DNA from: an uncultured Elusimicrobia bacterium
Lineage (GTDB): Bacteria; Elusimicrobiota; Endomicrobiia; DTEH01
Assembly: GCA_964508565.1 (NCBI GenBank)
Contig: CAZDUB010000005.1
Coordinates: forward strand, 9,756-73,755
DNA length: 64,000 nucleotides
Reading direction: 5' to 3'
In this document: positions 3,001 to 52,550 of the stretch, one piece after another
Layout: the number at the start of each line of letters is the position of its first letter
Position numbering within the stretch: the first letter of the stretch is position 1
Program-made: the position numbers and the translations under genes
Notes under the pieces: model-generated
The model's input: only the letters and a program-made list of their open reading frames with translations
Told to the model about the DNA's origin: nothing
The model's database searches: none

Positions 3001-6000
3001 TATACAAATTCGTGTTTATGATAAATCCAAAGAAGGTGGCAATGTATATACATCGCCTGAGATTTCTGTTGTGATTGACCGGACAGCGCCAACTTCTGGT
3101 TTGATATTCCCGAATTTAGCATTGCACAACTCAATTCCAGCTATAACAGGTACAGCAGCAGATACACCGCCTGGTCAATGGAGTGAGGTTAATATAAAAA
3201 TTAAGCGCGAAGGTGCAACTGAGACAAGATACTGGACAGGACCACCTTCAAACTTGTGGTCTTTAACTGAACAGTTTGCTTCAACTCAACCATTTACTTA
3301 TTATCAGTCGTCTTGGACATATAGTGGTGTGGCTTGGCAGTCAGGGTTTAAGTATACAATTATTACAAAAGCAAAGGATAAAGCAGGAAATGAAGAAACA
3401 GAACAGGCAAGGTTAACATTTATTTACGAGACAAAACCACCTGTTTCAGTTGTTGCTTTTTCACCATATCCTGAAGGTGTTAAACTTAATAGTTTGTCTG
3501 TTATAAGTGGAACTGCTGATGACTATCCGGATTCTGCTGAGGCAATGTATGCTACTGGTGTTTCTACATTTGAAGTAGCAGGTGGGTTTAACCAAGGTGT
3601 GCAGATTGCTTTAAGACAGCTTGCATACCCATCAACATATTACGGTAAAGCTGTACCTGCTGGCTGGAACAAGCAAGAGCCAGAATGGATTTATGTACAC
3701 TATTCATCAGCAACTAAGAAATGGTATATTGAAAACACAGAACTTGGTACATTTACTGGTCCTAGTGACCCACCGGATGGTATCTATCAGGTTATACCGA
3801 GAACAAATGACAATGCTGGAAATTTTGAAGTTGTATTTAACACAAGGACATTTATATGGGATACTACATCTCCAACATCACTTACAACCTATCCATCAAG
3901 TGGTTCTTATGTTGCAACTTTGACAAAAATTACAGGTACTGCAGATGAAAATCTTGCAGGAATTGATAAAGTTTATGTCTGGATTTTAGACCAAAATGGT
4001 AACTACTGGAATGGTTCTGGTTGGTCTTCTTCTGAAAGTTCGTTTACAGTAGTAATGTCTGGTGAGGTTGGTATATCAACATGGACTTTAAATACTTCAC
4101 CTACACTTACTGATGGTGCTACTTATTATATAAGAACGGTTGCAAAGGACTTAGCTGGGAATTTGCAGACAAATTACACAGAGATAAAATTCATCTGTGA
4201 CCGTCAAGGTCCTACTGTTTCTATAGTTGAACCAGTTGATACTACACCGCTTGATGCTTCAACTCCAAGGTTGTCTGTCTTGACAACAATAAGTGGGACT
4301 GCAGCTGATGTGGGTGTTGGTAGTATATCTGAGGTACAATATAGAATTAAAAATATCCGTCTCGGTAATTACTGGGACGGAAGTGGGTACTTGATAACTG
4401 ACTACAATATTCCTGAGTCAGATAAAGAGACAGCATGGTTTATCGTCCAGACAACTGTTACACCTGCGTATTCTATTTGGTTTGTTACACACTCGTTTAT
4501 AACTGATGAACAATACTTAGTTGAGGTTCGTGGTAAAGATACACTTGGAAATTATTCTGTTTTATATTCAACTATAAGTTTCACATTTGATACAAACATA
4601 CCTGTTTCCGCGATAAGTTTTCCATATAACACTACTGTCAGAACTATTTCAGGCGGGATTTATGGTAGCTGTCAAGACAGCGGTATTAACTTCCCAGGTA
4701 CAGTTACACAAGTGAGATTGGCAATTAAGAGGTTGTCTGATGGTTGGTGGTGGAGCCATACTGATTCTACATTTACTGCTACACAACCTTCACCACCTGA
4801 TGGGTATGTTTTAATTACTCCTGTTGGGAATAGCTGGAGTTATCCAACTATTACAGATGCGCATCTTACAAGTGGTACTTCCTACTACATTACAATAATT
4901 TGTCGTGATAACGCACTACCGCCAAATCAACAAAGTTGGTTTGTTGTATCCTCTACATTTACTTTTGATAACACACCACCTAATGTTGTAATCCAAAGAC
5001 CACCTTCTGTCACTCCTTACTACAACCAGACAGGGCTTACAGTAATCTCAGGTACAGCAGTTGATGCCACCTCACAAGTACAGGCGGTACAGATTAAGAT
5101 ACAGCGTTCTTCTGATGGTAAATGGTGGATTGATACTAATGGCGATGGTATCGGTGAAGGTGCGGATAACGGCTGGGCGGTTTCAGGTTCTGTTGAGATA
5201 CCTTGTGATATTTCAACACTTCCAACTTGGAAGTATTCTTTAGCAAACTTTGTAGCAAATCATGGGGTAAGATACGATGTTTGGGCGCGTGCTTGGGATG
5301 TACCAGGCACAACCTCAAGTTGGGTTGGGCCACAATCTTTCATTTATGATGTTGGTGTGCCGACAGCTGCTGTTTTTTCACCTACAAATGAAAGTTTTGT
5401 AAATACACAGATTGCGACAATTTCAGGTACAGCATTGGATGAACCAGCAGGGATTGCTTCAGTAGAAATAGCAATTGCTTCAAATCCTGTAGCACCTGCT
5501 GGTTCCTGGTGGGATCCGAATACACAAAGCTGGACTGCACAGAATGAAGTTTGGTTCTCAACAAATGTTTCGTATAACTATATTCCAACACCAAATGTCT
5601 GGGTTTCAACAACACCACCGCTTGAAAATGGTAAGAAATACTTTATAAGGTTAAGAACTACAGACCGTGCAGGTAATGTAAGAATACAGGATTCAATTAA
5701 ATTTACATACGATGCAACACCGCCTACAATTGTTTTACAAGAACCTCAAGGCCACGGGCCTTCTAATAATTATGAAGGTCCTAACACATTGCCTATAATT
5801 TCAGGTACTGCAAATGATACATCACCTGGTGTCATAGCATCTGTTAATGTTTGGATTACAACAAACCCTGCAAGCCCATGGTATTGGAACGGTACTTCCT
5901 GGCAGGACACTGAATATTCATTTAATGCTGATATAACTGGCTTACCTAACTGGAAGCTTGAAAGTACAGTTTATAACAATCCTTGGCAGCACGGTGTTAC

Positions 6001-9000
6001 CTTTAGAGTTATCTCGAAAGCGTACGATTCTGCTGGGAATCCTTCAGGTGAGGTTTATAAAGATTTTGTTTATGACGCAGCTGTACCAGTATCAAGTATA
6101 ACTTATCCAAGCTCAAACATAAATATAAGGTCTCTTACTGTAATTTCAGGTACACATTCAGATGCACATTCTGGTATAAAAAGTGTAAAAGTTGCAATTA
6201 GGCATCCATCTGGAACTTTCTGGAATGGAACATCTTGGGTATCATACGATCCTGCTACATGTTGGTTAGATGCTGTTGTTTATCAAACAAGTTATGTGTT
6301 TACAAACCTGCCAACTTCCTGGGATGACAGAACTGTTTACAGGTGTTATGTTCGAGCAGAAGATAATGTTTCAAACATAGAACCAGTACCACCTGATTGG
6401 TTGACAGCAGGAGTGCCATTTAGAATAGATTATTCTTCGCCGACATCAACAGTTTCAGACGGAACTTTACTTTCAGGGACTACTGTTTATCTTAAAGGTT
6501 ATATAACCTCAGTTGCAGGTACTGCTACTGATTTAACTGGTGGTAGTGGTGTCTCTGAAGTAAGGATAAGAGTAAGAAGGTCTGATGGGCTATATATGAA
6601 CGCTGCTGAAAACGACTGGACCACTGATTCTTCGTTTAACATATTAGCTTCCGGTGCTGAAAGCTGGTCTAAAGTATTTAGTTCACCAGGAATGCTTGAG
6701 GATGGTTATTGGTATGAGATAGAATCGAAAGCAAAAGACAAAGTTGTACCTGTTGCAAACGAACAGACACTTTTTGTTCCTGCAAGGTTCTATGTTGATA
6801 AGTCATCACCTGTAGCTGTTGTACAATATCCTGGCAACAACATACCTAACGATTTACACTATAACTGGTCAAGTTTGTTTAATATTTATGGTACAGCACA
6901 GGATGTGATAGTTGGTGGTGGCCAACCATCTGGAGTAAGCAATGTAGCGGTCGCGTTGATGCGACTTTCTGACAATATGTACTACACATCTACTGGATTT
7001 GACTCTTCAGTTTCAAGTTTCCATGTGTGCAACCTGTCACCATCTGCAACATACTGGTGGTATAGTTTTAACCCGTCATACTTGACTGACAATACATCTT
7101 ACACAGTTGTTGCACGTGTGTATGACCGTTCTATGAACTATCAGCTGTCAACTGTGAACTACTTCGTATATGATACATCTGCACCAGTTTCTTTGGTAGT
7201 TTTACCACAAGAAGGTGTGCTTTATGATAACAATACTTTACCAACAGTTTCAGGTACAGCAGTAGATTTAGTTTATGGTGGTCTTGGTAGAGTTGTTTCA
7301 GTAAAAATTACACTACAGCGTTCACCTTATGGTACAAACGATTACTGGACAGGTACAACTTGGGGTGCACAAACTTGGCTTGATACTACTGGATTATATG
7401 TTGGTAATACATATTATTGGTATTATGATGCAAGAAATGTTTTATGGAATGTAGATGAGACAGAGTATAAAATTGTTGCTGTTGCAACTGATAAAGCAGG
7501 TAATACTGAATTGGCACCGCAGACAAGAACATTTAGGTTTAGACCTTTACTTCCAAATTCTTATATAACACTACCACAGAACAACAGGTACTACTCTACA
7601 TTGACACAGATTGCAGGTACTACTGAGAATGCAGAATCTGTCCGTGTTGCGATATTAAGAAACTCTGATGGGTATTATTACACAGGTTCTAATGTTGAAC
7701 CTTACTGGACAAACACAGAAACTTGGCTTGTTCCTGTTGGTACACAGACATTTAGTTATACAATTCCTGCTGGTGATAGTTTATGGGTTTATGGTTCATC
7801 ATATACTGTAAAGTCAAAAGCAAAATCACTTTATGGTGATAGATGGCAAGGTGATTCAGGACAACTGCCAATAACAGAATCTGTTTTCTGGTTTGACAAT
7901 GTTGCACCTGTTTCTGTTGTAAACTCACCGCAGGCAGGAACACCACATTATAATAACTTGACTCTACCAACTTTGTCAGGAACTGCTTATGACGAACTTT
8001 CTGGTATTTCCAAAGTTGAGTATTCACTACAAGATTTAACAGCAGGGACAACATTCTGGGATGCTGCTACACAATCCTGGGTTTCAGCAGTAGAGTTGTG
8101 GAACACTACAAACTGGACCTCACCTGTATGGAGTACATATATTCCAGCAGGATATTTCACAGATGGGCATACTTATAGAGTAAAATCAAAAGCTTATGAT
8201 AACACACTACCTTCACCTGGTAGGATTGAAGTACCATCTGCAGGAAGAGATTTCATATACGATATAACGAAACCAACAGCGACAATTGTAAGGCCACCAC
8301 TTGACGGAGTCGCTTCTATCCCGTTTGGAAACTTACCTTCATATAAGACAGGTTTTGTTTTAACAGGAAACTTAGTTGACAAATCTCCAGGTGTTGTTGA
8401 AAGGGTTGAAGTTATGATCTATGACTTTGTTGCAAACAAATACTATACAGGTAGTGGTTGGCAGTCATCACCTGTTTGGATTTCTACTGAGACAACTGCT
8501 TTGTTTAATGTGTGGAGCTCTTCTTGGAGTTATAATGTTGGCAATATCTGGACTTCAGGAAGAAAGTATTTAGTTGTAGCAAAAGCAAAAGATAAAGCAG
8601 GAAATATTCAGGATATATTTGAAGTTAATATTTCTTCTAACCAGTTTATATTTGATACAAAAGCTCCGCAGACAGTTTTGACTTTACCTTCACAACAATA
8701 TGTTAATACACTAACAGATATTCAAGGAACCTCAACTGATGTAACAGAGACATATTATGTTGGTATGGATCCTAACCAAAACAGAGTAAAACTTGTAATT
8801 TACAATGTGACAGATAATACTTACTGGAACGGTTCAAACTGGCAGGTTGCTGTTTCAACACAAAATGCAGCAAGGGCAGGTCTTAATTGGGATAGCTGGT
8901 ATTATAGTGGTGTAAGCTGGATATCAGATAAACAGTATGAAATAAGACACTGGGCAGTGGATGATTTAGGCAATGAGGAAGTACCGTCAGTTAAGTTTAC

Positions 9001-12000
9001 AATAATCTATGATACCACACCACCGACTTCACAGATTGTTTATCCTGAAAATGATAAATTCTATAAACAACTTACAGCAATTTCAGGTACAGCAGATGCT
9101 CAACTTTCAGGGTTGGCAGGTGTTAAAATACAGGTTTCTTCCTGGACAGGGACAGATTGGAGTGTGCTTGCAGGGTATGATTTTGTTTCTGTGAACAATG
9201 TTTATCAGTCATCTTGGAGCTGGACTGTTGGGTTGCCTTCTTGGGTTTCTGGAGTAAAGTATAGGTTAATAAGTAAAGCAGTTGATAGAGCTGGTAATTC
9301 AGAGGTGGTTTTGTCAACTGTAACATTTACTTTTGATACACAGGCGCCAACTGTTGCAATAAACCTACCTGTTGGTGGTAAGTCGTACAAGAATTTGCCA
9401 CAGATAACAGGTACAGCATATGATGCTCAGTCAAGAGTAAAGAAAGTTGAGTTATGTATAAGAGATTTAACATATTCTTCAACTTACTTCAATAAAGCTA
9501 TAAATGATTGGGTGTATAGTTCAGAAGATCTATGGTTTGAATCTGATGCGTTTGTTGAAGCACAAAGTGTTGTCTGGACATTTACACTACAGACACCTGC
9601 TACAACTTGGGCTGATGGCAGAACATATGAAGTTAAAGCACGCGCGTATGATGCAGCGTTGAATACTTCTACAGTTGCAGGTCCTTGGACATTCAAGGAT
9701 GACAAAACACCACCTGTAACAAGAATTACACCTTATCCTGTACACAATGCATTTTATGACAATATACTTACAATTTCAGGTACTGCACATGACGATACTG
9801 CTGGAGTAAGGAAAATTTATGTAAAACTTGAAAGAGTTGCAGATGGATATACCTGGGATTGGAATGAAAAGAGGTGGAAGTCAGGAAATTACTACACAGA
9901 GATAAGTTATACAGAACCATACATGCTTGATAGAGTATGGAGTGTTGCTGTTTCAACAACGGATGTAGACAACAATCCAACTTGGGGAGACGGCTTGAGT
10001 TATAAAATATACAGTTGGGCTTCTGATGGAGTTGTAAATGTTGACCAGCAAGAAACTGTGTTTGAAGATGGTAGAAACAGAATAACAGTTTTAATTGATA
10101 GGCAGTCACCTCTGTTCTATGTTCAAGCACCGCTTAATAATACTTACTATCGTTCACTTAATACAATATCTGGTACATGCAAAGACCAGGGACCTTCAGG
10201 AATTAAAGAAGTTTATGTTGCTGTTCGTGTAGAAGGCGGTAACTTCTGGAGTGGTAATGCGTTTGATAGTGATTCACCTGATATTAACCCGAACGCTTGG
10301 AGACCAGCTACACTTTCGCCAGCAGCTACTTTCTTCTACTTTACAGAAATAGCAGACGCTGGTGGTTGGGTATCAGGTGGAAGGTATAGGATTTTTGTTA
10401 AGGTAGTAGACAATGCTGGTAATATAAATGCTCAGACAGATTGGGTATCTGGTGGCAACTTCTTTAGGGTCGACTGGATACCACCGACATCAAGGATTGT
10501 AAATCCTCAAACTGTAGAGTATAGAACTACTGCTTTAAGTTTAGTTACAGGTACTTGTAGTGACGGCGTAGGTGTTGGTGTTGAAAGAGTAAGGTTGTTT
10601 ATACAAAGAGCAGAAGATGGAAAGTATTGGTCTGTTACAGCAGGAGATTGGTCAGGTTCTGTTGATTCCTACTCAGTTTATCCTACAGGTATACCACCAG
10701 ATCAACAATGGCAACAGGATGTCTCAGCTGTTGCTTGGAAGCCAGGATATAAGTATCTTTTGTGGTCAATTGCAAGGGATGCCGTAACATTGCCACCGCC
10801 AGCTTACAACTATGAAGTAAACTGGGCTACAAATGTTTACTACTACGATCCACACAGTCCATTAGTATCAATACAACTTCCAGCAAACAACAGCTGGAGA
10901 CGAACACTTACAACAATATCAGGTACTGCTTGTGACCCAACATATACTGACCCAACTGTAGGTGTTCCGGGTACACCTTCTAATATTGACAAAGTTGAGA
11001 TTTCAATACAGAGATTATCTGATGGATATTACTTCTATGGAAGTTCGTTCTCTTTAGGTTCACAAGCATGGCTTAACACCACAATTTATGAATATCAACC
11101 TACATCTTGGAGCTGGACATATTCAATGCTTGATTCTTATTGGACAGATAATACATCTTATACAGTTGTTGCACGAGCATATGATAAAGCTGGGAATCTT
11201 TCATTCTATGCTACCAACTACTTCATATTTGACACCTCAGCACCAACTTCTGCTATAACTTATGGTGCTCCTACTGATGAAACTAACCAACCAATAGGTT
11301 ATCTACCATCATATCCTGTAAGAACTACACTTACATCTATAACAGGAACAGCAGCTGATTATGGACTTGGTAAACCTGACAAGGTTGAACTACAAATAAG
11401 ACGAGTTGACCCAACACCGGTGAAATACTTAGCTCCAGATTTGACATTTGTTGATTTCACAACAGCTGTGGTTGTTAATGTAAATCCTGACGGTAGCTGG
11501 AGTTTTGACACTTCAGCAGTTGGTTGGTTGTCTTTCTCAAACTATGAAATGCAATCAAGAGCAATTGATAAAGCTGGCAATGTTGAACAAGTATGGTCGG
11601 CTGTAAGAACATTTAGGATGGAGCCAGAGAGAGCAAAGTCAGTAATTACTTCTGTTGAGAATGGTAAGTTTTACCAGTCAGTTTCAGCAATAGGTGGTAC
11701 AGCAACACAAACACCTCTTACTGAAAGGTTGGATATAAGAATTAAACGCGAAACTGACAGTAAGTATTGGTCTGATACTTTAGGCAATTGGGTTTCTTAT
11801 TCAACTTGGGTTGTTATAATCTCACCGACACTTCCTAACTGGTCATATTCGCATCCAAGTTTGCAGTTTGTGCATGGTTCAAGTTATACTGTTGCGTCAA
11901 AAGCGTGGAGGTTATCTCCACTTGTAGCTGAATACGATACAGAACCACCGGGACCTGCACCAAATGTAATGCCTACATTCTGGATTGACAATGTTGAACC

Positions 12001-15000
12001 TACTGTTAGCTTGACATTACCTAACAAAGCATATGTGAACAATTTACCAACAGTTTCAGGTACTGCAGATGATGCACTTGCTGGAGTTGACAAAGTAGAA
12101 CTTTATATCCGTGATATAGCGCAAGGCACAACTTACTGGTCACAGTATTTACAATCCTGGGTGGACTATTCAACTGCTTGTGTTGCTAACTACAATAATA
12201 TTACTAAAGAGTGGATATTTACAGGTTCAACACCTACCTGGGTGAACTTAAAACAGTATGGTATTAAAGTAAAAGTTTATGACAGAAGTGTTCCACCGAA
12301 TACATACGAGTTGCCTGAGTTTACATTCTACTACGATTTGGTAACACCAACTGCTACAATTACTTCATTGTTACATGGTTCAACAATGTCAGTGGTTAAC
12401 GAAATTTCCGGTGAGTACTTTGATTTACCTTCAAACTCTGCTGTTGACAGAACAGCATCGCCTTCACCTGTTGAAGTAAAAATCCAAGCATTAGGTGGTA
12501 CTTATGCAGGTAGGTACTGGAGAGACAATCCTGCTGGGTGGGTGTTGTCTGAGACTTGGAACAATTCAACAGATACTGTTAAAGTTTATACATCTTCCTG
12601 GACCTATATAAAACCAACAGCGCTTGATTGGGAGAATGGAGTTTGGTATTCAGTAGTAGTAAGAGTAAAAGATATTGCAGGAAATCAACAGTCAACATTT
12701 GTTGTTGGAGTATCATCAATTTCATTCCTTTGTGACAAAACACCACCTGAAACTACAGTTACAACACCTGGACAGACATATCTTTCAGTACCACCATTGA
12801 ACTTAGCTGGTAGTTTAACCGATACACTTTCCGGTGCAGCAACTGTTTACTTAAGGCTGTGTTTGTGGCTGGCTGACGGCACTACATATTACTGGACTGG
12901 TGCTACCTGGTCTTCAACAACTGTTGATGCTACAATTATAGCTGAAGAGTTGTCACCTAAATATGTACCACCGTTAGCAACTTGGTCAAATCCATTCCCA
13001 GCAGAAGTAACCTTTGCAGATATAGGTGGTTATACTGATAAGAAATACAATATTCGTGTTCAAGGTGTAGATGGTGCAAAACCATATGGTAATATTGAAA
13101 GTTGGGATACTGGGTTTGACTTCTATATTGATACTACACCACCGGTTTCACAGATTAACTCTCCAGTGAACAACTCAAAACTTTCTAATTTGAGCTTAAT
13201 TTCAGGTACAGCTAATGGATTCTTCTGCGGCTTACAAGAAGTAAGAATACAAATTTCTTCTTGGACAGGATCTTCTTGGTCAGTAGTTTTAGATTGGACT
13301 GACACAGAAAACGATGTAACTTCACCTGGTAATATTACAACAACCTGGTACTACACCATACCAGCAGGTCTTCTACAAAATGGAGTAAGATATAGAGTAA
13401 TATCCCGTGCAAGAGATAATGCTTCAAACTACGAAGTTAAGTTATCAACAGTAGAGTTTATATTTGACATTTCAGCCCCTGAAACAGTAATAATTGTACC
13501 TGATAGGGCATATTACGGTTCACAGACAACGCAACTTCCAACAATTTCAGGTACTTCACGCGACCTGCCAACTTCACCACTTGTGAACTCCGGAGTTGAC
13601 AAAGTATTTATAAGAATCTCAAGAACACCTGATGATGGTCTTCCATATTGGAGTGGATATTTAAGACAATGGGTTTCATACTCAACTTGGAGTGTTTGTG
13701 TTGATACATCACCTTGGTATTATACGATGTTTGAATCAAGTTGTAGTTGGGAAGATGGAAGGATGTATACAGTTAACACTCGTGCAGTTGATTTTGCAGG
13801 AAATCTTTCCGGCTGGACGACTTATACATTTAGGTATGATGAAACACTTCCACGCTGCAGTATCGTAGAACCAAACAAAAACTGGGTCTCAGTTTTAACA
13901 ACAATTTCAGGTACAGCTTATGATTGGCCATCTTTGTATCCTTACAAGTCAGGATTAAGAAAAGTTGAATTAGCAATTCAAAGAGTAGATATTCAGCAAT
14001 GGTTTAATCCAGCAACTGGTGGATTTACAGAACTCACAACATATTGGTATTTAATAAACACATATACAGCTGAACTTTCAACTGTAAGCTGGATCGCAAC
14101 AGGTGTTTCAACACCTACTTGGGAAAATGGAAGAACTTATTTGATAAAAGTTCGTGCATTTGATATGTCTGAAAACGAATCAGTACATCAATCTATAACA
14201 TTTACATACGATAGAAGTGAACCAACACTATCAATTACAAAACCTGACCAGCCTGCACACAATAGTTTGCCGACAATATCAGGTACAGCAAACGATACTG
14301 CTGGTGGAACAGCTGGTGAGATTGAATATGTAGCTTTAAGAGTAAAAGATGTAACATTAGGTAGATACTACAACAGAGCCATAGATGATTGGGATCCAGC
14401 ATTAACAGCAGAACAGGCATGGTTTGTTGCAACAAATACTTCTACTTGGGAAGTATGGTTTGCAACATTTACAAAATGGATTTCTGGTAGGTACTTTGAA
14501 GTTAACGCTTATGCAAAAGATAAATCAGGCCTTTATTCAACAGTGTTTGCCACAAAGACATTCTTATACGATGTAGAACCACCTGCTATTGTTGTTACAA
14601 AACCAAAGACAGGCGAATTCTGGAGAACACTCGGTACAATCTCCGGTACAGCACAGGATATGCCATATCCTGGGAACAACTCTGGAAGTGGTTTAAAGAG
14701 AATTGCCGTAAGGAACAACTTGACAGGCCTTTGGTTTGATGGGACAAACTTTACTGCCGGAACACCACAAGCGGCATACTTTAGTTTAGGTCCTGGAGAT
14801 GGTGACTGGAGTTTCTACAATGCAACACTTGCTGGTATACTTGAATCCGGTGTTTCTTACTATATAACTACACAAGCGTTTGATTACGCAGGGAATGAAA
14901 CTGGTTGGTACAATGTTGGTTCATCAACATTTGTGTTTGACAACACAGTTCCAACTGCTTATGTAGTAATTCCACAGATAACAGAGACATATTACAGAAC

Positions 15001-18000
15001 ACTGCCTACAATTTCAGGTACTGCAGAAGACCAACAACCTCAAGCTAACAGGTTAACCTCAGGAGTAAGAACCGTTGAACTTACAATACAAGATGTGACA
15101 GCTGGTGTTTTGGAGACAGATAAATACTGGACAGGAACTGACTGGACAGGAGTAACTCCTACAACATTTACGGCTGTATCATCTGATAATTTTGCAAACT
15201 GGTACTCTACTGCTGTACCTAATACTGCATGGAAGCAAGGACATAGGTATAAGATTACAATATGGTCTTATGACAAAGCGTTGCCTTTACCTGGTAATCA
15301 ACAAACACCTTTTGATGTCTACTTCAGATTTGATTCATCAGCACCTATTGTTGCGTTTACAAACATTACAAACAACTCGTTCTATAAAACTCTACCACAG
15401 ATTTCAGGTACAACTGTTGACCAACCACTTGCACCTCTCTATCGTTCAGGTGTAAACAGGACAGAAGTTTTAATAAAAGACAACATAACTGGCAACTTCT
15501 GGGATGGAACTTCTTGGCAGGCAACAGAACCTACTGACTGGCCAGATGCAAGTTATGTTTCTGGTTATGACCCACAATCAGTGGTTGATTGGTACTTTAA
15601 TACGCCACAGTTTGAAAGTGGTAAAGAGTACAATGTCTCTGCTAAGACAGTTGACAATGTGGATATTTATTCTTCTTCAATAACTTATGTTATAAGATAT
15701 GATACTCACTCACCAACCTCAGTTGTAACAAGGCCTGAGGAAGACAAAGGATACTCAACTGCTGACCCACTTATTACAATCTCTGGTACAACTTCTGATT
15801 ATATGCCATATGCAGGATTTAAATATTCAGGTGTGGCTTCTGGTGGTATAAAAATCTCTGTAAGGTTAGACGAACCGCCATATGATCCGGTCCTACCTTC
15901 AGGATTAGATAAATGGTGGGACTATACAACAAACAGCTGGGTGCCTTGTAAAGAAGTTTCAGCTGATCCGTCAGCAAAGTATGAATCAGACACACTTGGT
16001 ACTGTTGAGATTTATAATCAAGTTGAGAATGTCTATTATTGGAGAATTTCAGCACCAAGTTGGATTTCAGGAAAACGCTATGTGATTAGAGTATGGTCAC
16101 AAGATTTAGTTGGCAACAACATTGATCCAAATTATGCATGTGGTAAGTCAACAAGGGCATTTACAGTAGATATTCAACCGCCTGTTTCAAGACCAGTAAG
16201 GCCTCAAAATGGCGGGTTTTATAATGCTTCTACAAATAGGTTAACAACAATTTCAGGGACAGCAGTTGATGATTTACCAGATAATGTAAAACAAACAGAG
16301 ATAAGAATTTACTATCAAGATGGCAGCAACATATACTACTGGAACGGCTCTTTATGGCAACTTGGTATTTCAAGTTGGATTGTGTGTGCTAACTTAACTT
16401 CAGGTGGTACATGGTGGGCATATATTCCTGGAGTTTCTGGCAACGAGATTGCATGGGTTTCAGGAAAGACATATTATTTAAATACAAGAGCAACTGATAA
16501 AGCAAACAATGTTGAGGTAAACTTCTCAACGATCACATTCTATGTAGATACTGAAGCACCGGTTGTTTATATTGATAAACCACAACATTTAGCTGGATAT
16601 TCACCTGTAAATCCATTAAATAGGTTTGAAGGAAGATGTAATGACGACTTTACCGGTGTAAAGAGTGTGTTTGTTGCATTACAAGATTTATCAAATGGTA
16701 ACTGGTGGCAAGGTGGTGCTTCCTGGGGAACAAGTCAGGTATGGTTTGAACTAAATCATACAAATGGATACTTGTCTTCAGCTGCTACCTGGTGGTACTA
16801 TCCAGCGCCTACATTTACAAGTGGAAGAAACTACATGCTTGTAGGTAAAGCAGTTGATAACGCAGATAATGAGCAAACTGTCTTTACCGTAGGGCAGTCC
16901 TCAAATGTGTTCTCGTACGATGACCAACCACCAACTGCAGCAGTTACAACTCCTCAATATGACAAAGCTTATTCTTTAAACAAACCACTTACAACAATTT
17001 CAGGTACAGCTTATGACGACTTCAGCGGTGTTGTTGGAGTTAAAGCTAGAATTTGGTTCTTAGGAGATTCTTCTAATTGGAGTTTACCTGGAGGAACTTC
17101 ATATTATTGGACAGGTATAAGTTGGTCTTCACAATCTGTTTATGAACTTGCTTGCTCTTCTTTAACAGCAGATTGGTCGCAGTGGTATTATACAGCTTCT
17201 TTTGACTGGAAAAATGGCAAAGTCCATTACATAGATGTTCAAGCAGTTGATTTAGCACAAAACAAACAATCTTGGGGTAGTTCAACCACAAGGTTTAAGT
17301 ATGATACTACTGTGCCAAACATAACAATTGTTATACCACAAGCCGCATCATTCTGGGGGCCAGCAAACAACTTGCCTACACTTTCAGGTGTTGCAAATGA
17401 CGAGTTTAGTGGTATAAACCGTGTAGTTGTACAGATTAAGAATGAAACAGATATACTTTACTGGAACGGTTCTTCCTTTACACCACATACTACAAACTAT
17501 GTCTTAGCGACACTACTACAACCAGGTGCACTTTCAACAGAATGGCGTGTTTACTTCCCAACAGAATCCTGGATTACTGATAAGTATTATTCAGTAAAAG
17601 TAAAATCTGTGGATGAAGCAGAAAATTCTTCAAGTGAAGTTACAAATACATTTACACATGATTCTACTTTACCTAAGACAACACTTTATGTGCCATCAAA
17701 GAGGTTCTACAACTTCTTAACAATAATTTCAGGTACTGCTTGGGATGAAGGTCCAGCTGCACCTGCAAGGTCAAGGTTGAAAGAAGTACGGCTTGCAATA
17801 CAAAACGATCCAACTGTTAACAACTTATGGTGGGATGGTCAAACATTTAGTAAGACACAGCCAGAATGGTTGTTATGTTCAGGAGTTACTGAAGGGACTG
17901 ATTCTGACGACTTCTACTTCACAGGTTCAACACCAACCTGGCAAGATGGCAAGTCTTACTTAATACTTGTAAGAGCACAAGATAGGTCGCTAAATTATCA

Positions 18001-21000
18001 GTCGCCTGTGACTTCCTTTACATTTACATATGATATTACACCGCCAACGGTAAAGTTAAGAGTTCCACAGGAAGGAAGCGGATTTAGGTATTCATCTCTA
18101 CCCACTATTTCAGGTACATCTTCAGATAATGCTCCAGGTGAGGTAAGTATTGTGTATTTAAGAATTAGGGAAAATAGTGGATTGTTAAGATATTGGAACA
18201 ATAATACACAACAGTTTGACAGTGAATTACAACCAGAAAATGCATGGTTTGTCGCAATAACAACTGCGACTCCAGAATGGTCTGTTTGGTTTACAACATT
18301 TACAAATTTACCTTGGCAGGATGGTATAGATTATATTGTTGAAGCAAAAGTTTATGATAAAGCAGGCAACCTCTGTGTAAACTATTCAACTTCTGTGTTC
18401 ACTTACGATATCACACCACCGCAGTCAGTTGTAAACTTACCTACAAATAACTTCTATAATCATCTTTCTGTGATATCAGGGACAGCAAAAGAGTTTGCAG
18501 GTGGAACAGTTTCAGATGTAAAAGTTTTTGTTAAGAGATTAACAGATAATAGATGGTGGGCAACATCTGGGAACTGGCTTACAACAGAAACGCCTTTACC
18601 AAACACACTGCTTGTTCAGATAGGAGCTGATACCTGGAGATGGGAAAGAACAGATACAGAACTTTCAAGTTATTTAACCTCAGGCACATCTTATTATGTT
18701 TATACATTTGCAAGAGATAACGCAATACCTGTAAATCAAGAATCAATACCTGGAGCTGGACCAAAAACATTTGTTTGGGATGTAACAGCACCGACATCAA
18801 CTGTAATATATCCACAAGATGGCGGTGCCTATAGAACAGCAACACTTACAACAATCTCAGGTACACAACAAGATGTTTCGCCGTTTGCAGGTGCGTTAGT
18901 TGCTGGTGTTCCAGCAGTAGCTGGTGCGGTAAAAGTTTCAATACAAGATTTGACATATCCATCAACATACTGGTCTTCTATTTTGAATCAATGGGTTGAA
19001 GGTGTAGTATGGAATGACGCAGTTGTGTACCCATCAAGCTGGGTATTTAATGTATCAAATGTTAGCTTTATAAGTGGCAGATACTACAAGATTCGTTCAA
19101 AAGCAATAGATGCGGCATTACCTTCAGGAAATGACCAAGAGACACAATTCCCACAAGCAGGCTACACAATATTGTTTGATACACATCCACCAGTTGTTTC
19201 AGTTACATATCCTGCAAATGACTCTGTTGTGAACTTTATCCCAACTATAACTGGTACGGCTTCAGATTCACCTACAACCAGCTCAGGAATTGATAAAGTT
19301 CTTGTTGCAATAAGAGAAATTGAACCTGTGGGTCTATGGTGGGACCCAGCAACTTCTTCGTTTACCTCCTCTACACCCAAGTACTCTACTGCAACTTGGA
19401 TTCAAGGGCCACCAGCAAGGTGGGAGTGGCAAGATTCTGGTATTAAATTGAGGGATGGTTATAAGTATTATGTACAATGTTATGCAAGAGATAAAGCTGG
19501 AAATGAAAGCGGTGTTTCTACACCACTCTTGTTCAGATACGACATTTCAGCACCACAAGTGGTGATAACTTTACCATCCAAAGCATGGTATAATTCACTT
19601 TTAACAGTTTCTGGTACAGCAGCTGATTATGGTTATTCTGAAGCAGGAGTCACAGAGGTTCTTGTTACTTTCCAAAAGAACCCGCCAGCTGGATTGTGGT
19701 GGGATGGCGTAACATTTAGTAAGGGTACAATTGATGAAGCTGTCTGGATAAGCTGCGATATATCATCGCTACCAGAATGGAAGTTAACCTCTTTACCTGC
19801 TTGGGAGAATGCTGTTACATACAAAGTTGTGGCAAAAGCAAAAGATAAAGCGGGTAACTTTAGTGAAATTTATGAAAGGATATTTACATTTGACAATATC
19901 CCACCAACTTCAGCTGTTACAAAACCAGAAAGTGGCAACTACTATAGCAGTATTTCAGAAATTTCAGGTACTTGTTTTGATGCAAACAGTGGTGTTGAAA
20001 AAGTTGAGATACGACTTGTTGAGAAGGATGTTTTAACAGGGAACATCACTCGTTGCTGGTATGGTTCTTTAGGTTGGCAGATAACAGATATTTCAAGTTG
20101 GGTTGTTGTAAACAATGTATGGCAGTCATCCTGGAGTTATACTGTGCCAATTATTTACACTTCAGGAAGAAAATATGAGATAACCTCTCGTGCTTGGGAT
20201 GTAGCTGGTTCTTCAGAGACAACTTCAGAGATACCTTCTTATGATGTTTGGTTTATATACGATGCAGAGAAACCTAACTCTCAAGTTAAACTACCAGAAG
20301 ATAATAAGTATTACTGGAACTTATCTACAATTTCAGGTACAGCAAAGGATAATCCTAATGAACCACCGGTTGGTGCTGGCATACAAAAAGTTGAGGTTGC
20401 AATACAAAAACTTACAGGGACAAACGCAGGAAAATGGTGGGATGGTGCTTCGTTTAGTTTAGATACTCCAAAGTGGGACGCTTTGGTTGTCTCAGGTTCT
20501 ACGACATGGACTGCGACATTTAATAACAATGTCTGGGAAGATGGTATAAGGTATCTTGTTGTTTCAAGAGCAACTGATAAATCTCAACCAGCGAATGTAG
20601 AAAACACATTTACTGTTTCAGTAAACTCGGTTACATTTATCTGTGATAAGTCAACACCTACAAGCAGTATCACATGGCCAACTAACCTTTTAGTTACAAA
20701 CTCCATTACTACAATTTCAGGGACTTCACAAGATCCCATTGTGGGAGGTAGTGCAAGTGGTGTAAGAAATACAGAGATTTCAATTCAGTGTATAGCACCA
20801 ACAACTGGTTGGTACAATGGTGTTGACTTTAGTAGTACATCACAACAATGGTTTAACACAACCTCGCTTTCACCTTCAAACACATCATGGGTCTATACAG
20901 GCTTTGCTTCTGCTTTAGTTTCACACTCAACTTATGTTGTATATAGTCGTAGTTTTGACAATGCATTACCTTTGCCTGGAAATTATGAAACAGTTTATTC

Positions 21001-23335
21001 TTCAAGGACATTCGTTTATGATATAACAAAACCAACATCTGTTATAAACTTGCCATCACTTTCTTACTATACAGACAATCCAGCTGCTTCACCAATGATG
21101 CAGCTTCCTTTAATTACAGGCACAGCATTTGATCAGTTTGGTATATCAAAAGTAGAAGTATTAATAAGGGACCTAACTTCAGGTTCAACTTATTGGACAG
21201 GAAATTCTTGGGTTGACTATGAGCCTTCTGACTGGCCAGATGCCGCTGGTACAGAGTTGTGGCAGTTTACTTCAACACCGACTTGGGAGTCTGGAAGACA
21301 GTATAGGATTTATTCAAAAGCAAGAGATGTTGCAGGAAATATTGAATCTCGTGGTCCTGCTACAGCTTCTGTTTATGATAGAACATTTATCTTTGACAAC
21401 ACACCACCTGTTTCAAGGATAACATATCCTGAGGATGGTAAGTATTACATATCGCCAACTGTAATTTCAGGGACTGCAGATGATGTTTTAGCTCCTACAG
21501 GTCCGAATAAGTCAGGAATACTTTATGTGAAAGTTATTATAAAACGACTTGATACAAACCAGTACTGGGATGGTTCTGCATGGAGTGGAAATGTTACAGA
21601 ACTTGATACAGTATGGGTTGAAGGAGAAAAAAGATGGTATAGAAACACAGGACTTCCAACATGGGAAGACGGTGTACAATATCAGATACAATGCAGAGCA
21701 TATGATAAAGCAACTAATCCAGAGCCAGAGCCACTACATCCAGGTTCAACCTGGAGATGTGATAAGACAGCGCCACAAGTTTATTTACAAACACCGCTTC
21801 ATAGTTTAACGATGCCACCTGATAAATACTATAGACTCCTTCCAACAATTTCAGGTACTGCGTATGATGCAAATCCTTTAGCCAAAGTTGAAGTAAGGAT
21901 TTGGAGTTATATTGATGGTGGTTTCTGGGATGGAAGCGGTTGGAATATGGGATTACCTCAAGAGAATGCTTGGTTTGTTGTGTCTTCTGCCACACCGCCG
22001 TCTGACTGGACAGTGTGGTATACCACCTTTACTGCTTGGCAGTCAGGATATGTATACAGAGTTGAAGCAAGGTCTTGGGATTCTGCAGGGAATTATTCAA
22101 CAGTTTATTCAACAGCAATATTTAGATATGATACAACTAAACCAGAATCTTATGTTTCATTCCCGCCAAATAGAGCATTTATCGGTGCATTGTCAACAAT
22201 ACAAGGTACAGCAAAAGATTTACCAGAGCCTTCTGGCTCATATTATGGTAATTCTGGGCTTTATAATGTAAGAATTGCTGTAAGAAATAATAAAACAGGT
22301 TATTGGTGGTCAGGAACTGGCTTTACAGCAAACTCTTTAACAGAACGACCTGTAAATGGTCTTTCAAACTGGACATTTGACGAGATAAACTCTGCATCAT
22401 TAGAATCAGGTACTTCTTATTATATTACAACTCGTGCTGAAGACAATGCTGGTAACAGAGAAGATTGGTTCAACATTAGAAGCTCAACGTTTGTGTTTGA
22501 CAACACACCACCGGTTTCAAAAATAGAGTTTCCACAAAATAACGCTGCATATAATACACCATTTACTATACTGTCAGGAACTTCAGTTGATGCAACAGCT
22601 GGTGTAGGTAAAGTTGAGATTTCTATACAGAACCTTACAGATTCTGGTACACCATATTGGAACCATGATTCAAATATATGGGAAGCAAACGCGCCTGTTG
22701 AAAGATGGATTACAATCTCAACTTCAGGTGTTGGTGGTGAAGTTGTAAGATGGATATATCAAAACGCATCAATCTACTGGGCTGATGGTAGAATTTATAG
22801 AGTGCGTGTGCGTGGTTATGACAATGTTTCAATACCAACTGCCAATGTTGAACAAGATCCATTTATATCTTCCCACACATTTATATACGATACAACAAAA
22901 CCGACCTCAACAGTAGTTCAGGTTCGTGTTGCAGGTGAATGGAAGAATATTGAAGAATTGTATTTTGAAAATGTTGAATACATTGGTGGTTCAGCAGTAG
23001 ATAATTTGAATCCTTTAAACAACAGTGGTATTGTACCAAACAGCGGTGTAAAGATTTGTCTGATAAGGGATGAAAACGAAAATGAAGTTATAGATACAGA
23101 TGGTTCCGATTTAATTTACGACTTTGTAAGTTCAACCTGGACAGCTTATTATGGTACAGTTGGTAGCAACAACTGGGGTGTCTGCAGTGGTGGTGAACCT
23201 TCATGGCAGTCACCTGCATTTACAACATCTACCTGGAAGTCAGGAAAACTTTATTTTGTAAGGTCGCAAGCAACAGATAGAGCAGGTAATACACAGGATT
23301 ATGATGTCTCCAACTGGAAGAGATTCTATGTTACA
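2..23335 (+). repeat. Type-A array: ~62 tandem Trp-rich Ig-like modules (~125 aa, ~375 nt period) within the giant CDS
   Basis: I counted 62 occurrences of the I/V-S/T-G-T-A-x-D-type motif (ISGTAND, ISGTAYD, VSGTAVD, ITGTAAD and so on). Consensus by eye: F.yD.t.P.s.i..P......y..l..ISGTA.D..SGv..V.v.i......yW.G..W......W.y.....W..G..Y.v..rA.D.AGN.e. A nucleotide core ACAATTTCAGGTAC recurs, for example at 821, 13541, 13901, 15008, 16994 and 21845. The N-terminal half of the module resembles bacterial Ig domains of the Big_7 type; this family assignment is from memory and has not been searched. Confidence 0.8.
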
Positions 23336-26300
23336 CTACCTGCGAACTCGTTTGTTTTAATACCACAGTTTACTACTGTCGTAGCTGGGACAAAGATACA
23401 GATTACTGTTAAAGCTGCGGATGTAAACGGTGATACTGCAAAGAATTACACTGGAAGAATAAGGTTTACAGTTGATGGTTTGTATCCATCAGGAGCAGGA
23501 CCTGAGTATAAATGGACAAACAGAGCATATCAAGCAGAAGAAGGTTGGTTACCTGATGACTATACATTTACACTTGCAGATAAAGGTGTAAAGACATTCT
23601 ATACAGTACTTGTTGATTCAGAAGCGGTTAATCTTGTCAAAGCAGGTGTAAGAACAATAAGAGTAACTGATATTCCAGGTGATGGTATAGGAAGAGACAA
23701 TATTACAGGTGCTACAACAATTACTGTTGTTCCTGCAGCACCTGAGAAACTAAGAGTGGTTGTTCCTGGTGTATCAAGAGCGGCTGGTGTTGTTGGAGGA
23801 CTTAGCGGTCTTCCTGCAATACAAACTGCAGGTGTATCGTTTGATGTAAAAGTTGATGCTTGTGATAGATACTGGAATGTTGTACCATCAACATCAACAA
23901 ATGTAAGGTTAAATGTTACTGCAGGTTCTGATCCTTACACAACATCACTTCCGCAGCAAAAACAACTTCTTGACGGTTCGGGTTTGCCTCAGGGGACAAC
24001 TACATTTACAATATTCTTTGTACAAAGAGGGAATCAGTGGTTAAGAGCAGAAGATATTGGTAACACAGGCTTCTTATCACATACAATACCACAACCTGTC
24101 CCTGTGAACCCAGCTACTGCAGTAAAACTTCAGGTTATATTACCCGGTGAAACAGCAGAATGGGGTAAACCTCCATATGATACACCAGCAGGTGGTAAGT
24201 TAGGTACACCTACAACACAAATTGCAGGACAAGCTTTTGCAGTACAAGTTAACGCTTGCGATTATTACTGGAACAGAAACGATGCTGTAAACCCAACAGT
24301 AAAACTTGTCACATCTGACAAATACGATGTTGAACCATCAACTTTAACCTTAGTAAACGGTACAACTACATTCTTTGTAACATTGGTTACAGCAGCGTCT
24401 TACTATGCTGAGCTTGGTAGAATGCTTACAGGAACAACTCATTACATATATGCTAATGTCTATGAAGGTATAAACTTATCCACTGGAGTATCCTCAGGTG
24501 TAGTTGTTTTACCTGCAGCTGCTGAAAAGTTGTTAGTAGTTGTACCTGGTGAGATTCCGGAACCTGGTTCTTCAACTGGTAAAGTTGGCATACCTGCTAC
24601 ATTTATAGCTGGTACTACATACTATATTGATGTGTATTTAGTTGACCAATACTTCAATGTACACTCAACTGCAACACAGCCAGTAGTTTCATTAGACATA
24701 TCTCCTTATCCAAATCCAGCAACTTCTATTGAACAAAATCCAGCTGAAGCACAGCTTGTTGAAGGCTACAGACAATTTGCAGTTAACTTCAAAGTTGCAA
24801 CTGGACAGACAAATGGCCCATCACAAAGAAATATTGTAGCAACTGATACAGGAGGTTCAGGGACAAGTTATACTGGATATACCACAACAGCATTGTATGT
24901 TTCACCTGATGTTATCTCTAAATTACAACTAATCGTTCCTGGTGAAACTGTACAACCAGGTATTCCTGAAGGAAAAACTGGTACTCCTACGCCGAGAACA
25001 GCTGGAGTGCCGTTTAATGTAACAGTAAGGTCCTGTGATAGGTTCTGGAACCACAATACAGCAGGAACTATGGAGGTTAAACTTCTAACCTCGGATCCTT
25101 ATGATACAGAACCAGTATTCAATTTAGTTTCAGGACAAAAGATACAGTCGTTGACACTACGTCGTGCAAGACCTACAGGTAATACACTTGACAATGTATA
25201 TGTAGATATTACAGCAGTTGAAACATCCACTACACCAGTTACTTCATCTCATACAGTTTCAGGTATACTTGTTAATCCAAACAATGCAACAAGACTACAA
25301 CTTATACTACCTGGTGAAACTGCAGAACCTGGCCATCCGGAAGGTAAAATAGGTACTATTTCACCAATTACAGCTGGTACACCGTTTACGGTAGTAGTAA
25401 ACTTAGTTGACAACTGGTGGAACAGAGTTGCGTTAGATGAGCCAACTGTAAGAATACAAACACCAAACGATCCTTATGATGTTGAACCTTCAACACAGAC
25501 ACTTCAAGCAGGTCAGTATGTATTTACAAACGCTGTAGCAATAGTTCGTGCTGGAACACATACTATAACTGTTGAAGATGTGGATGGAGTAGCACCACTT
25601 TATATCTCAACAACTTCAAAGAGTTTTTATGTTCCACCAAGAGCAGCATCACAACTACAAGTGCTTGTTCCTAATCAACAAAATGTTGCAGGAAACTGGG
25701 TTGGTTCTCCAAATGGGCAGGCACCTTATGGTAAAAACACAGCTGTTACTCAAACACAAACTGCTGGAGTACCGTTTACAGTTACTGTGAATGCATGTGA
25801 TACATATTGGAACATTACAACAACAAACACTGTCGTCTGGATACAAGTGATGAAGACAGCAGCAGAGATTGATCCGTATGCTGAAGTAGAACCTGGATCT
25901 GTTAACTTAATTAATACAGCAACATTTACAGTTGTTGTAAAAACAGCACAGACAAGAAGAATAAAAGTTACAGATGGTGATGCAGGACTTCTTGACCAAC
26001 TTGGTGAAGTTTTCAATGTACAACCAGCAGCACCTTCAAAGATATTTGTATTACTGCCCGGGGAGGCAGCAGAGCCTGGTTCGCCTACTGGCAAAACAGG
26101 TACACCTTTAATACAAGAAGCAGGTTATTCGTTTATACCAACAGTTCGTCTCGTAGATAACTACTTTAACCCAACAGCAGCTTCACAGGATATCACAGTA
26201 AGGTTGACAACGGAAGATCCTTATGATAGTTATACATATGGAAGTTATATTGATTGTATGATACCTACAAACAACACAGATGCTACACTTTCGGAATATC

Positions 26301-45729: not shown

Positions 45730-46356
45730 ATGAAAGTAAAGAGGTTATCTTTATATTTTTTGCTATTTTTTATATTTTGCATCGCAACATTATTTGCTCA
45801 ACCAACTCAATACTCAGAAAAATCAATTTTTAAAGGCTTACCCAAAGGATATTATGCAGCAATTATAACAGATTTTGGACCCATAGTATTTGAACTATAT
45901 GAGGACAAAGCGCCAAAAACAGTAAAAAATTTTGTAGACTTAGCTTTAGGTAAAAAAGAATGGATTGACCCAAAAACAGGTAAGAAAGTAAAAAAAAGAT
46001 TTTATGATGGATTAATTTTCCATAGAGTAATACCAAACTTTATGGCACAAACTGGTTGCCCAAAGGGTGACGGAACAGGTGGCCCTGGTTATGAGTTTGA
46101 GGATGAGTTTAGTCAAGATTTACTTTTTGACAGACCAGGCCGCGTAGCAATGGCAAATCGTGGACCGAATACAAATGGTTCTCAGATTTTTATTACTGTA
46201 GTGCCAACTCCATGGTTGAACATGAGACACACAATTTTTGGACAAGTTGTGAAAGGCCAAGATGTAGTAGAGAGAATTGTTTCTGTACCAAGAGACAGTA
46301 AAGACAAACCGTTGAAGCCAATTTATATAAGAAAAGTTTTGATTAAGAGAATATAA
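45730..46356 (+). CDS. Secreted cyclophilin-type peptidyl-prolyl cis-trans isomerase
   Basis: 208 aa. It has an N-terminal signal peptide ([23 protein letters not shown]|QP). Cyclophilin motifs are [39 protein letters not shown] and HTIFGQVV. The RBS AAGGGGA lies about 7 nt upstream. Confidence 0.9.
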
Positions 46357-46360
46357 TTAT

Positions 46361-47452
46361 ATGAGTGTAAAAAAAGATTATTATGAAATTTTAGGTGTTC
46401 CTAGAAACGCAACACAAAAAGAGATAGAAGAAGCATATAGGCGTCTTGCAATTCAGTATCATCCGGATAGGCATCCTCCAGAAAAAAAAGATGAAATGAG
46501 AGAAAAGTTCAAAGAAATCTCTGAAGCCTATGCTGTTCTGTCTGATCCTAAAAAAAGAAAACAATATGATATGTACGGCCATGCGGGTATAGATAGTTCT
46601 TATACACCAGAAGACATCTTTTCAGGAGTTGATTTTGGTAGCGTTTTTAGAGATATTGGATTTGATAGTGTATTTGAAGACTTGTTTGATTTTTTTGGAG
46701 TAAAATCAAAAAGAAAAGGGCCTCAGCGTGGAGATGATATTGAGATACCTATAACTATTACTCTTGAAGAAGCATTCACAGGAGTAGAGAAACCATTATC
46801 TTTTTATCATACAGTATCTTGTCCTGTATGTAAAGGAACTGGTTCAAAACCTGGTACATCTAAAAAAACTTGTCCTAAATGTAAGGGGACAGGTTATATA
46901 AGTTATTCTAGAGGTTTCTTTAATTTTCAAGAGACATGTCCAAGATGTAAAGGTCAAGGTCAAGTAGTGGATATACCTTGTGAAAAATGTGGTGGGCATG
47001 GAAAAATTAAACAACAAGAAAACATAGTAGTGAAAATTCCAGCGGGAGTAGATAATGGTACATCTATAAGAGTAAAAGGGAAAGGAGAAGCAGGAGTTGA
47101 AGGAGGCCCTTCTGGAGATTTATATGTCTCAGTTAGGATACAACAACATCCTATTTTTGTTAGACAAGGAGACGATCTTTTTTGCAAAATAGAAATACCT
47201 TATCCTATAGCAGTGTTAGGTGGTGAAGTTGATGTTCCCACTATAGACAATGTTAAGATAAAAATGGCAGTGCCAGCTGGTACTCAATCTGGAAAAGTTT
47301 TTAGGTTAAGGGGTAAAGGAATGCCTGACCTTCACACAGGCAGACGAGGTGATTTGTATGTTGAAGTGTCAATAGAGGTACCACAGAAACTAAATGAAAG
47401 ACAGAAAAATGCTCTTCGTGAATATGCAAAAACTTTAAATCTTGATGTATGA
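46361..47452 (+). CDS. dnaJ: Molecular chaperone DnaJ
   Basis: 363 aa. The J-domain reads DYYEILGV...YHPD. There are four CxxCxGxG zinc-finger repeats ([32 protein letters not shown]). The C-terminal domains are typical (GDLYV...PDL...GDLYV). Confidence 0.93.
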
Positions 47453-48180: not shown

Positions 48181-48183
48181 ATT

Positions 48184-49299: not shown

Positions 49300-49357
49300 T
49301 AGTAATTTTGTATTAAATGGAAATTTAGTATTAAAACAAGAAAATATTCTGATAAAA

Positions 49358-49364
49358 AAGGAGG
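49358..49364 (+). promoter_or_regulatory. Shine-Dalgarno site (AAGGAGG) for the acyl-CoA dehydrogenase gene
   Basis: AAGGAGG lies 8 nt upstream of the ATG at 49373, within a 73-nt intergenic gap. Confidence 0.7.
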
Positions 49365-49372
49365 TTTAATTT

Positions 49373-50530: not shown

Positions 50531-50533
50531 AAA

Positions 50534-52530: not shown

Positions 52531-52550
52531 TTTTTAGAGGTGTAAAAAAT

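Follow-up and report, generated by a model that had tools for sequence, protein, structure and literature searches.

An ancient higher-order repeat layer in a giant, predicted surface protein of a hot-spring Endomicrobiia bacterium, probably built by multi-module duplication

We analyzed a 64,000-nucleotide (nt) stretch, hereafter the window, of contig CAZDUB010000005.1 (assembly GCA_964508565.1, positions 9,756 to 73,755 of the forward strand), which comes from an uncultured bacterium of the Endomicrobiia (Elusimicrobiota) sampled in a hot springs metagenome. The window opens inside a single unbroken open reading frame (ORF) on the plus strand (nt 2-45508, 15,168 codons), whose 5' end is open at the left edge of the window and whose first stop codon lies at 45506-45508; the product is predicted from its sequence to be a secreted or cell-surface fibre protein. 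Considering all results described below, the region very probably represents the N-terminal half of such a giant protein, with at least 62 head-to-tail immunoglobulin (Ig)-like modules that carry an ancient, titin-like super-repeat layer generated by multi-module in-frame duplications. Two features frame the analysis (relatives are cited by our own handles, such as L002):

2-45508, plus strand: giant ORF without an earlier stop, with syntenic orthologues of ~80% identity in L002, L003, L004, and L049
2-23335, plus strand: type-1 array of 62 divergent Ig-like modules, M01-M62, of ~125 amino acids (aa) each (period ~375 nt)

Segmentation with a profile hidden Markov model built from the giant protein itself yielded 62 adjoining modules, each 108-156 aa long, which together cover the first 7,778 residues. 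The module was modeled by AlphaFold2 as an all-beta, Ig-like sandwich of ten strands (pLDDT 93.7, pTM 0.86), and Foldseek returned solely generic Ig-type matches, including SiiE (2yn5_B, TM-score 0.52) and the HPI S-layer protein (8cka_B, 0.54). At the sequence level, the weak best matches of the module profile were extender domains of giant adhesins, namely, MpAFP region II, SiiE, and an RTX adhesin (4p99, 2yn3, 5irb). Moreover, Big_13 (PF19077) matched 14 and Big_7 (PF17957) 9 of the 62 modules at E ≤ 1, with best E values across all modules of 4.1e-4 and 3.3e-6, respectively, while the hits examined stayed below the Pfam gathering threshold (for member 1, 18 bits with a cutoff of 24.1 for Big_7 and 13 bits with a cutoff of 27 for Big_13); some homologues in other metagenome-assembled genomes (MAGs) carry precomputed Big_13 or Big_3 hits. 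At E ≤ 1e-3, the module family counted 12,121 cluster representatives, of which 1,394 remained at E ≤ 1e-30; no protein carried more than 55 modules, and the named homologues were mostly "hypothetical" fragments from Elusimicrobiota MAGs. Asp/Asn positions were conserved in the motifs ISGTA.D, A.D.aGN, and the terminal F..D, and those at module ends may, by analogy with bacterial Ig-like (BIg) extender domains, bind Ca2+ and stiffen the junctions. The RTX nonapeptide motif GGxGxD was absent throughout the 15,168 aa, HemolysinCabind gave no match in Pfam scans of the array stretch and the downstream part, and no transmembrane-like runs were found in the window protein.

To describe order above the level of the single module, all modules were aligned against each other, the similarities were corrected by row and column for how consensus-like each module is (given as Z values), and significance was estimated from 2,000 permutations of module order. 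The mean identity between modules was 29% and the maximum 48% (M40-M60 and M25-M36). After correction, the strongest pairs were not scattered but fell on a few diagonals. Along the +11 diagonal, M17-25 versus M28-36 gave nine consecutive positive Z values (3.4, 2.0, 4.9, 1.5, 3.5, 2.6, 2.5, 0.8, and 5.4), five of the nine pairs being reciprocal best hits, and none of the 2,000 permutations matched this run (p < 0.0005). The +10 and +20 offsets were significant as well (family-wise p = 0.0015 and 0.017, respectively), and M12-13 matched M39-40, M49-50, and M59-60. When module insertions and deletions were allowed, a gapped module-level local alignment yielded one chain, M17-51 versus M28-61, with a score of 24.6 against a null maximum of 16.3. 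The same order was visible in the string of clustered module types: M17-25 and M28-36 both read "e. f. g h.. i", M38-41 and M48-51 read "d b c h", M59-61 reads "b c h", and M12-16 reads "b c. d b". Equal positions were thus more alike over consecutive modules, as in a super-repeat, at nine positions for +11 and at four to five for +10 and +20, with permutation support; a titin-like period maintained over many units was not observed, considering that only two nine-module cassette copies and three regularly spaced short-block copies occur. The units on these diagonals are as follows:

6077-9337, plus strand: cassette A, M17-M25, types e. f. g h.. i, on the +11 diagonal
10100-13468, plus strand: cassette B, M28-M36, collinear with cassette A over nine positive Z values, offset +11 modules (~4.05 kb)
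4202-4969, plus strand: core block copy 1, M12-M13 (types b c), followed by M15-16 (d b), placed by module similarity
13469-15334, plus strand: block copy 2, comprising M37 and M38-M41 (types. d b c h)
17306-19180, plus strand: block copy 3, comprising M47 and M48-M51 (types. d b c h), offset from copy 2 by +10 modules (3822 nt)
21398-22918, plus strand: block copy 4, M58-M61, with clear paralogy only for M59-M61 (b c h), offset from copy 3 by +10 modules (3735 nt)
16550-17305, plus strand: M45-M46, in which the cassette tail (M23/M34 type, then M35 type) recurs weakly for a third time, +11 from M34-35 (M35-M46 reciprocal best hit, Z 2.5; M23-M45, Z 2.4)

From their sequences, we firmly interpret cassettes A and B as a segmental duplication of at least nine modules with an 11-module offset. 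A first-pass annotation of the window, made from the letters alone, had already pointed to such repeats; all motifs quoted in it were found in the translation, and its coordinates coincide with module boundaries. The two-module core that it saw four times was recovered as M12-13 (4202-4969), M39-40 (14213-14941), M49-50 (18035-18781), and M59-60 (21785-22501). Its three four-module blocks correspond to M38-41, M48-51, and M58-61 at the offsets listed above, but the pairs M48-M58 (Z 0.6) and M41-M61 (Z -0.1) are weak. Similarly, its eight-module block (M19-26 versus M30-37) is collinear at an offset of 4053 nt, but the true start lies two modules earlier, at M17, and the end one module earlier, M26-M37 having a Z of -0.1.

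The giant protein also supplied a negative control, in the form of a second array:

23738-35773, plus strand: type-2 array, 32 modules of a different repeat of ~120-125 aa

This array occupies aa 7913-11924, has a mean identity of 35%, and shares the motif LPGE..PG..GK.GTP..AG..F.V.V.A.D.YWN...DPYD.EPS, with no Pfam or NCBIfam family. The identical permutation test on its 32 modules revealed no higher-order diagonal (best diagonal p = 0.81), indicating that the super-repeat signal of the type-1 array is not a by-product of the method.

The age of the duplications was approached through orthologous arrays. The window DnaJ falls among the Endomicrobiia and is 80-85% identical in five MAGs, four of which carry a syntenic giant ORF (~80% identical and gap-free over the C-terminal ~1,500-3,300 residues). 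In L074 (CALFVX010000001.1; comparison covering M36-M62), 27 modules follow M36-M62 in order, and all but m03-m05 have their positional counterpart as best hit (24 of 27). The same order (M36-62 or M35-62) was observed in L077 and L076, with GC contents of 43% and 56%, respectively, save for a diverged patch in L076, while m13-28 of L071 map in order onto M01-M17. A genome scan with M38-41 as a single protein found no relative, and when motifs conserved in both the window and UBA5214 were used, UBA5214 alone was recovered. Bootstrapped neighbor-joining trees of concatenated blocks resolved the following groups (W, window modules):

Cassette A group: W17-25 and L071 m28-36, bootstrap 100%; L060 m02-04 and L073 m05-07 belong to the same orthogroup
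Cassette B group: W28-36 and L073 m30-38, bootstrap 97%; L060 m17-25 joins this side
38-type block group: W38-41 with L060 (a/b), L073a/b, L074, L076, and L077, bootstrap 100%
48-type block group: W48-51 with L074, L073c, L077, and L078, bootstrap 86%
58-type block group: W58-61 with L074, L076, and L077, bootstrap 100%
11-type block group: W11-14 and L071 m22-25, bootstrap 100%

Each window copy therefore groups with its own positional orthologue (bootstrap 86-100%) and not with its paralogues in the window, indicating that the duplications predate the divergence of these lineages. The positional co-clustering and the dating against orthologous giant genes that the first-pass annotation had envisaged were both obtained, the latter placing the duplications before the divergence of the sampled Elusimicrobiota lineages. 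The duplications in the window are thus ancient and shared, not peculiar to this genome.

Nucleotide-level comparison agreed with this age. The off-diagonals anticipated at 3.7-4.1 kb exist as protein-level diagonals at +10/+11, whereas nearly nothing is left of them in the DNA, the best two self-hits of the window (71% over 118 nt and 73% over 81 nt, at offsets of 4059 and 3825 nt) lying on the predicted diagonals. A higher-order repeat at the DNA level was accordingly not found in the window but was present in L060, L066, L068, L073, and L078. Moreover, at identical residues, paralogous pairs used the same codon in a fraction of 0.485, compared with 0.480 in random module pairs, which shows that synonymous sites are saturated. 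In the source sequencing run, the array had an even depth of ~50x and no structural joints in contigs, and no copy-number polymorphism was seen in these assembled contigs, from which rare variants could escape. Such polymorphism is not expected for these copies, considering that each has its own orthogroup and that collinearity extends over 27 modules. A small bubble of single-nucleotide polymorphisms (SNPs) at window 8785-9064, with minor variant contigs at 12-14x versus 31-43x for the main allele and 6-9 SNPs each, represents a second strain or allele in the hot-spring population.

Younger events of the same kind were detected in relatives as repeats at the nucleotide level:

L078: 1.76 kb, 73% nucleotide identity, offset ~5 modules
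L066: 1.78 kb, 77%, offset ~5 modules
L068: 1.48 kb, 82%, offset ~5 modules
L068, second repeat: 0.75 kb, 73%, offset ~9.4 modules
L060: 1.6 kb, 71%, offset ~22 modules
L073: 0.37 kb, 73%, offset ~10 modules

These younger tandem duplications lie at L078 1635-5208, L066 8432-12084, L068 9945-14193, and L060 2183-11830, mostly with a five-module unit. In a frameshift-tolerant reading of L078, a module of the M37 type stands directly before a 48-type block, no equivalent of M38-47 occurs, and an additional five-module duplication is present. The L078 block is sister to the 48-type block of L077 (93%), which has both 38- and 48-types, so that loss of M38-47 is the simplest reading. The narrower claim that exactly one cassette had been lost, which came from a single-frame reading, was dropped when the extra five-module duplication was found, while the absence of M38-47 held. 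The broken frames of L078 are probably indel errors of a long-read assembly and not signs of a pseudogene.

Conservation along the array was mosaic. Over M37-40, the distant L076 and L077 resemble the window more (46-57%) than the close relative L074 does, and over M45-51 the opposite holds; M37-M40 (window 13469-14941, L074 563-2038) is 36-49% identical in L074, compared with 51-87% in M41-M62. This indicates block replacement or accelerated divergence in the L074 lineage. Gene conversion of L074 m03-05 by its own 58-type block was also considered and rejected as unsupported, the identity being only 42-47%. M26-M30 (window 9338-11269, L073 10001-12520) is 68% identical to the distant UBA5214 (GC 44%), in which most other modules are 35-50% identical, and this segment is either unusually constrained or exchanged between lineages. 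Such mosaic conservation implies that block-wise replacement or locally accelerated divergence must have occurred. Overall, the compared sequences indicate that gain and loss of cassettes recur in this protein family.

The first-pass annotation had attributed the array to tandem duplication of 8-11-module cassettes followed by divergence. Duplication of several modules at once stands, and is firm for cassettes A and B; the copies have diverged, but their later history also included lineage-specific duplications, loss, and block replacement. For the core block, duplication of a whole ~10-module cassette is likely but unproven. When similarity was averaged over four orthologous arrays, M37-41 versus M47-51 gave Z values of 2.7, 2.8, 3.8, 3.1, and 0.7, and M39-59 and M40-60 reached 5.6 and 5.9, respectively. 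Several points weigh against the super-repeat reading and its dating. The spacers M42-47 versus M52-57, at a fixed offset of +10, were at background (mean Z 0.22, p = 0.27, ortholog-averaged), and it is these six modules per period without excess similarity that leave the whole cassette undemonstrated here. In addition, the relatives' arrays were read over ~10-kb flanks (27 modules) reached from the junction of the array with the type-2 array, the trees used simple distances and short concatenated blocks with some deeper nodes at only 61-76%, and L078 (CAWCNJ010000004.1) is a frameshifted assembly with the giant gene in at least nine overlapping frames. Finally, a Pfam scan of a 1,780-aa array stretch returned no family, and the Pfam, NCBIfam, and type IX secretion system (T9SS) matches all fall under curated cutoffs. 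The background-level spacers would be expected if a functional unit of two to five modules (types d b c h) had instead been copied or gene-converted ~10 modules apart, with unrelated modules between, an explanation that we consider rather unlikely although it has substance. Excess similarity is restricted to M37-41, M47-51, and M59-61; M39-40 resemble M59-60 (Z 5.6-5.9) more strongly than they do the neighboring copy M49-50 (3.1-3.8); and other genomes have the same block at other spacings (5 in L066; 5, 10, and 21 in L073). What speaks for the larger unit is a one-module register shift, missed by the fixed-offset test and recovered by gapped module alignment, in which M34-35 match M45-46 and M37 matches M47, extending the unit to ~9 of 10 modules. 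Moreover, the orthogroup trees give no sign of recent conversion between the window copies, and in relatives the younger events took the form of tandem duplications of four to five contiguous modules rather than of insertions.

The remaining explanations are much less probable. If whole 8-11-module cassettes had been duplicated in tandem recently in this genome, or were still being duplicated, copy number should vary between strains; such a history would fit the regular offsets (11, 10, and 10 modules) and the younger tandem cassette duplications of relatives, but it is already largely refuted for the window copies and appears very unlikely. The window has no nucleotide-level repeat and is saturated at synonymous sites, every copy falls in an orthogroup of its own, the source-run contigs have no joints, and L074, a close relative (DnaJ 80% identical, on the same contig, L003; junction region 82%), keeps the same 27 modules in order. 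Convergence, in which equivalent positions were selected for the same surface features with no common history of duplication, would draw on the position-specific constraint implied by positional conservation over deep time, yet the similarity covers entire modules, core and linker motifs included, along a run of nine in the same order; with faint nucleotide traces exactly on the predicted diagonals and the duplication process directly seen in relatives, we regard it as highly improbable. Least credible of all, and negligible in our judgment, is misjoining of repeats during metagenome assembly: repeat arrays are error-prone in short-read assemblies, but these modules are ~29% identical without long shared nucleotide repeats, the depth is uniform at ~50x without joints, and assemblies made independently from other samples show the same module order. 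The strong divergence of the modules allows such arrays to be assembled reliably from short reads.

Under the preferred reading of ancient multi-module duplication, several modules at a time would have been duplicated in frame within the array, most likely through unequal homologous recombination or replication slippage between paralogous modules. Since the lineages split, the copies have been kept as positionally orthologous, individually diverging modules, and the process has continued in relatives, where duplications of 5, 10, and 22 modules occurred, M38-M47 was apparently lost once, and modules were replaced block by block. The modules themselves may act as a rigid extender that holds distal parts of the protein away from the cell.

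The protein probably extends beyond the arrays on both sides. On the N-terminal side, the L071 orthologue has a Sec signal peptide (MKHIRSNLTRLIFLFSLGIFLFPCALFAGS), which is followed by a ~500-aa nonrepeat N-terminal region (start and N-terminal region, L071 1247-2750) and 12 further modules, the signal peptide sitting ~2,040 aa upstream of the M01 equivalent; the window protein is thus probably truncated by ~2,000 residues. After both arrays comes a nonrepetitive tail of ~3,200 aa, which ends in an FN3-like segment and a domain of ~100 aa (both within window 44900-45505):

45179-45469, plus strand: C-terminal domain of ~100 aa, preceded by the FN3-like segment, with subthreshold resemblance to T9SS sorting and FlgD-Ig domains

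This domain matched FlgD_ig at E 5e-4 (20.4 bits, cutoff 27), the PorU C-terminal region at E 3e-6 (far under the cutoff of that profile), and Por_Secre_tail at E 0.021 (14.8 bits, cutoff 23), and its extreme C-terminal position fits a T9SS sorting domain. Judged by these resemblances, it is possibly a secretion or anchoring signal, in a phylum where such a signal is not established.

The nine downstream genes scanned are housekeeping genes, encoding a peptidyl-prolyl isomerase (cyclophilin), DnaJ, RsmE, a radical-SAM methylthiotransferase-type protein, an acyl-CoA dehydrogenase (ACAD), YmdB, XseA, a SIS+CBS protein, and a HAD phosphatase. No ABC transporter, membrane fusion protein, or TolC gene of a type I secretion system (T1SS) was found among these nine, the upstream side lying outside the window. 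At window 52780-54303, the SIS+CBS protein (KdsD-like) adjoins the HAD phosphatase (KdsC-like), and this pair suggests synthesis of 3-deoxy-D-manno-octulosonate and lipopolysaccharide and hence a diderm envelope. The GC content is 0.39-0.41 over most of the giant gene and ~0.34 near its 3' end, versus 0.25-0.33 in the genes downstream (45730-64000). The foreign origin that this difference might suggest was rejected, since GC at third codon positions matches that of the neighbors (0.22-0.25 in the giant gene versus 0.16-0.23); the higher GC is due to amino acid composition, which is rich in T, S, G, A, P, and W.

Titin A-band super-repeats consist of 7- and 11-domain units in 6 and 11 copies, and nebulin is organized in 7-module super-repeats. 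Both are the classic super-repeat proteins (PMC10665226), and domain repeats are known to grow by several domains in one event, with duplications often falling mid-array, as detected by autocorrelation of domain similarity; in the 2006 survey by Bjorklund, Ekman, and Elofsson, this pattern was found mainly in eukaryotes (PMC1553488). The window protein resembles titin and nebulin in having a long Ig-type tandem array with a second, longer period, in which equivalent positions are more alike than neighbors, and in the duplication of multidomain units followed by position-by-position upkeep across species (PMC10665226, PMC1553488). Unlike titin, it is a bacterial, single-exon protein with a predicted extracellular location, in which a single domain type takes the place of an Ig/FnIII pattern; its array covers only ~2-4 periods and is far more diverged, its relatives differ in period (5, 10, and ~22 modules), and it has no known counterpart to titin's periodic partner structure. 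The cases of multidomain expansion in the 2006 survey are likewise internal duplications of several domains, whereas the present one is prokaryotic, with events dated across genomes. SiiE, MpIBP/MpAFP region II, and LapA-type RTX adhesins are also secreted giants with tens of ~100-aa Ig-like extender modules and acidic residues kept at module ends; unlike them, the window protein lacks RTX repeats, a HemolysinCabind match, and T1SS genes downstream, its modules are ~125 aa, Trp-rich, and ~29% identical rather than near-identical copies, and a Sec signal peptide is present in its orthologue. ORFs of >10,000 aa, predicted to be extracellular and rich in repeats, are also described from MAGs of Omnitrophota and other little-studied, uncultured lineages, but those proteins carry HEAT, TPR, dockerin, and enzymatic domains, and the Elusimicrobiota Ig-module family and its higher-order repeats are not described in that work (bioRxiv 10.1101/2023.11.21.568195). 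The phenomenon itself, multidomain repeat expansion, is thus known, and the window provides a well-resolved fresh example that stands out for being prokaryotic, for its deep positional orthology, and for events of different ages.

As such, this protein is a clear prokaryotic case of a giant repeat protein growing by several modules at once, without introducing a new biological principle. By analogy with titin, the 10-11-module super-repeat and the W-rich two-module core (b c), which hold fixed positions across Endomicrobiia of 40-56% GC, might reflect a functional periodicity, an idea that is improbable at present; if true, the fibre would serve as a bacterial ruler or scaffold to which a partner or lattice (an S-layer, an envelope, or a structure of a partner cell) docks every ~10 modules, as titin matches the thick-filament period. 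The finding also draws attention to a large, uncurated family of Ig-like modules (~12,000 cluster representatives, no Pfam model) that is typical of Elusimicrobiota giant proteins. Within the giant protein, the modules behave as individually conserved positions and not as interchangeable copies, pointing to position-specific roles rather than to mere length.

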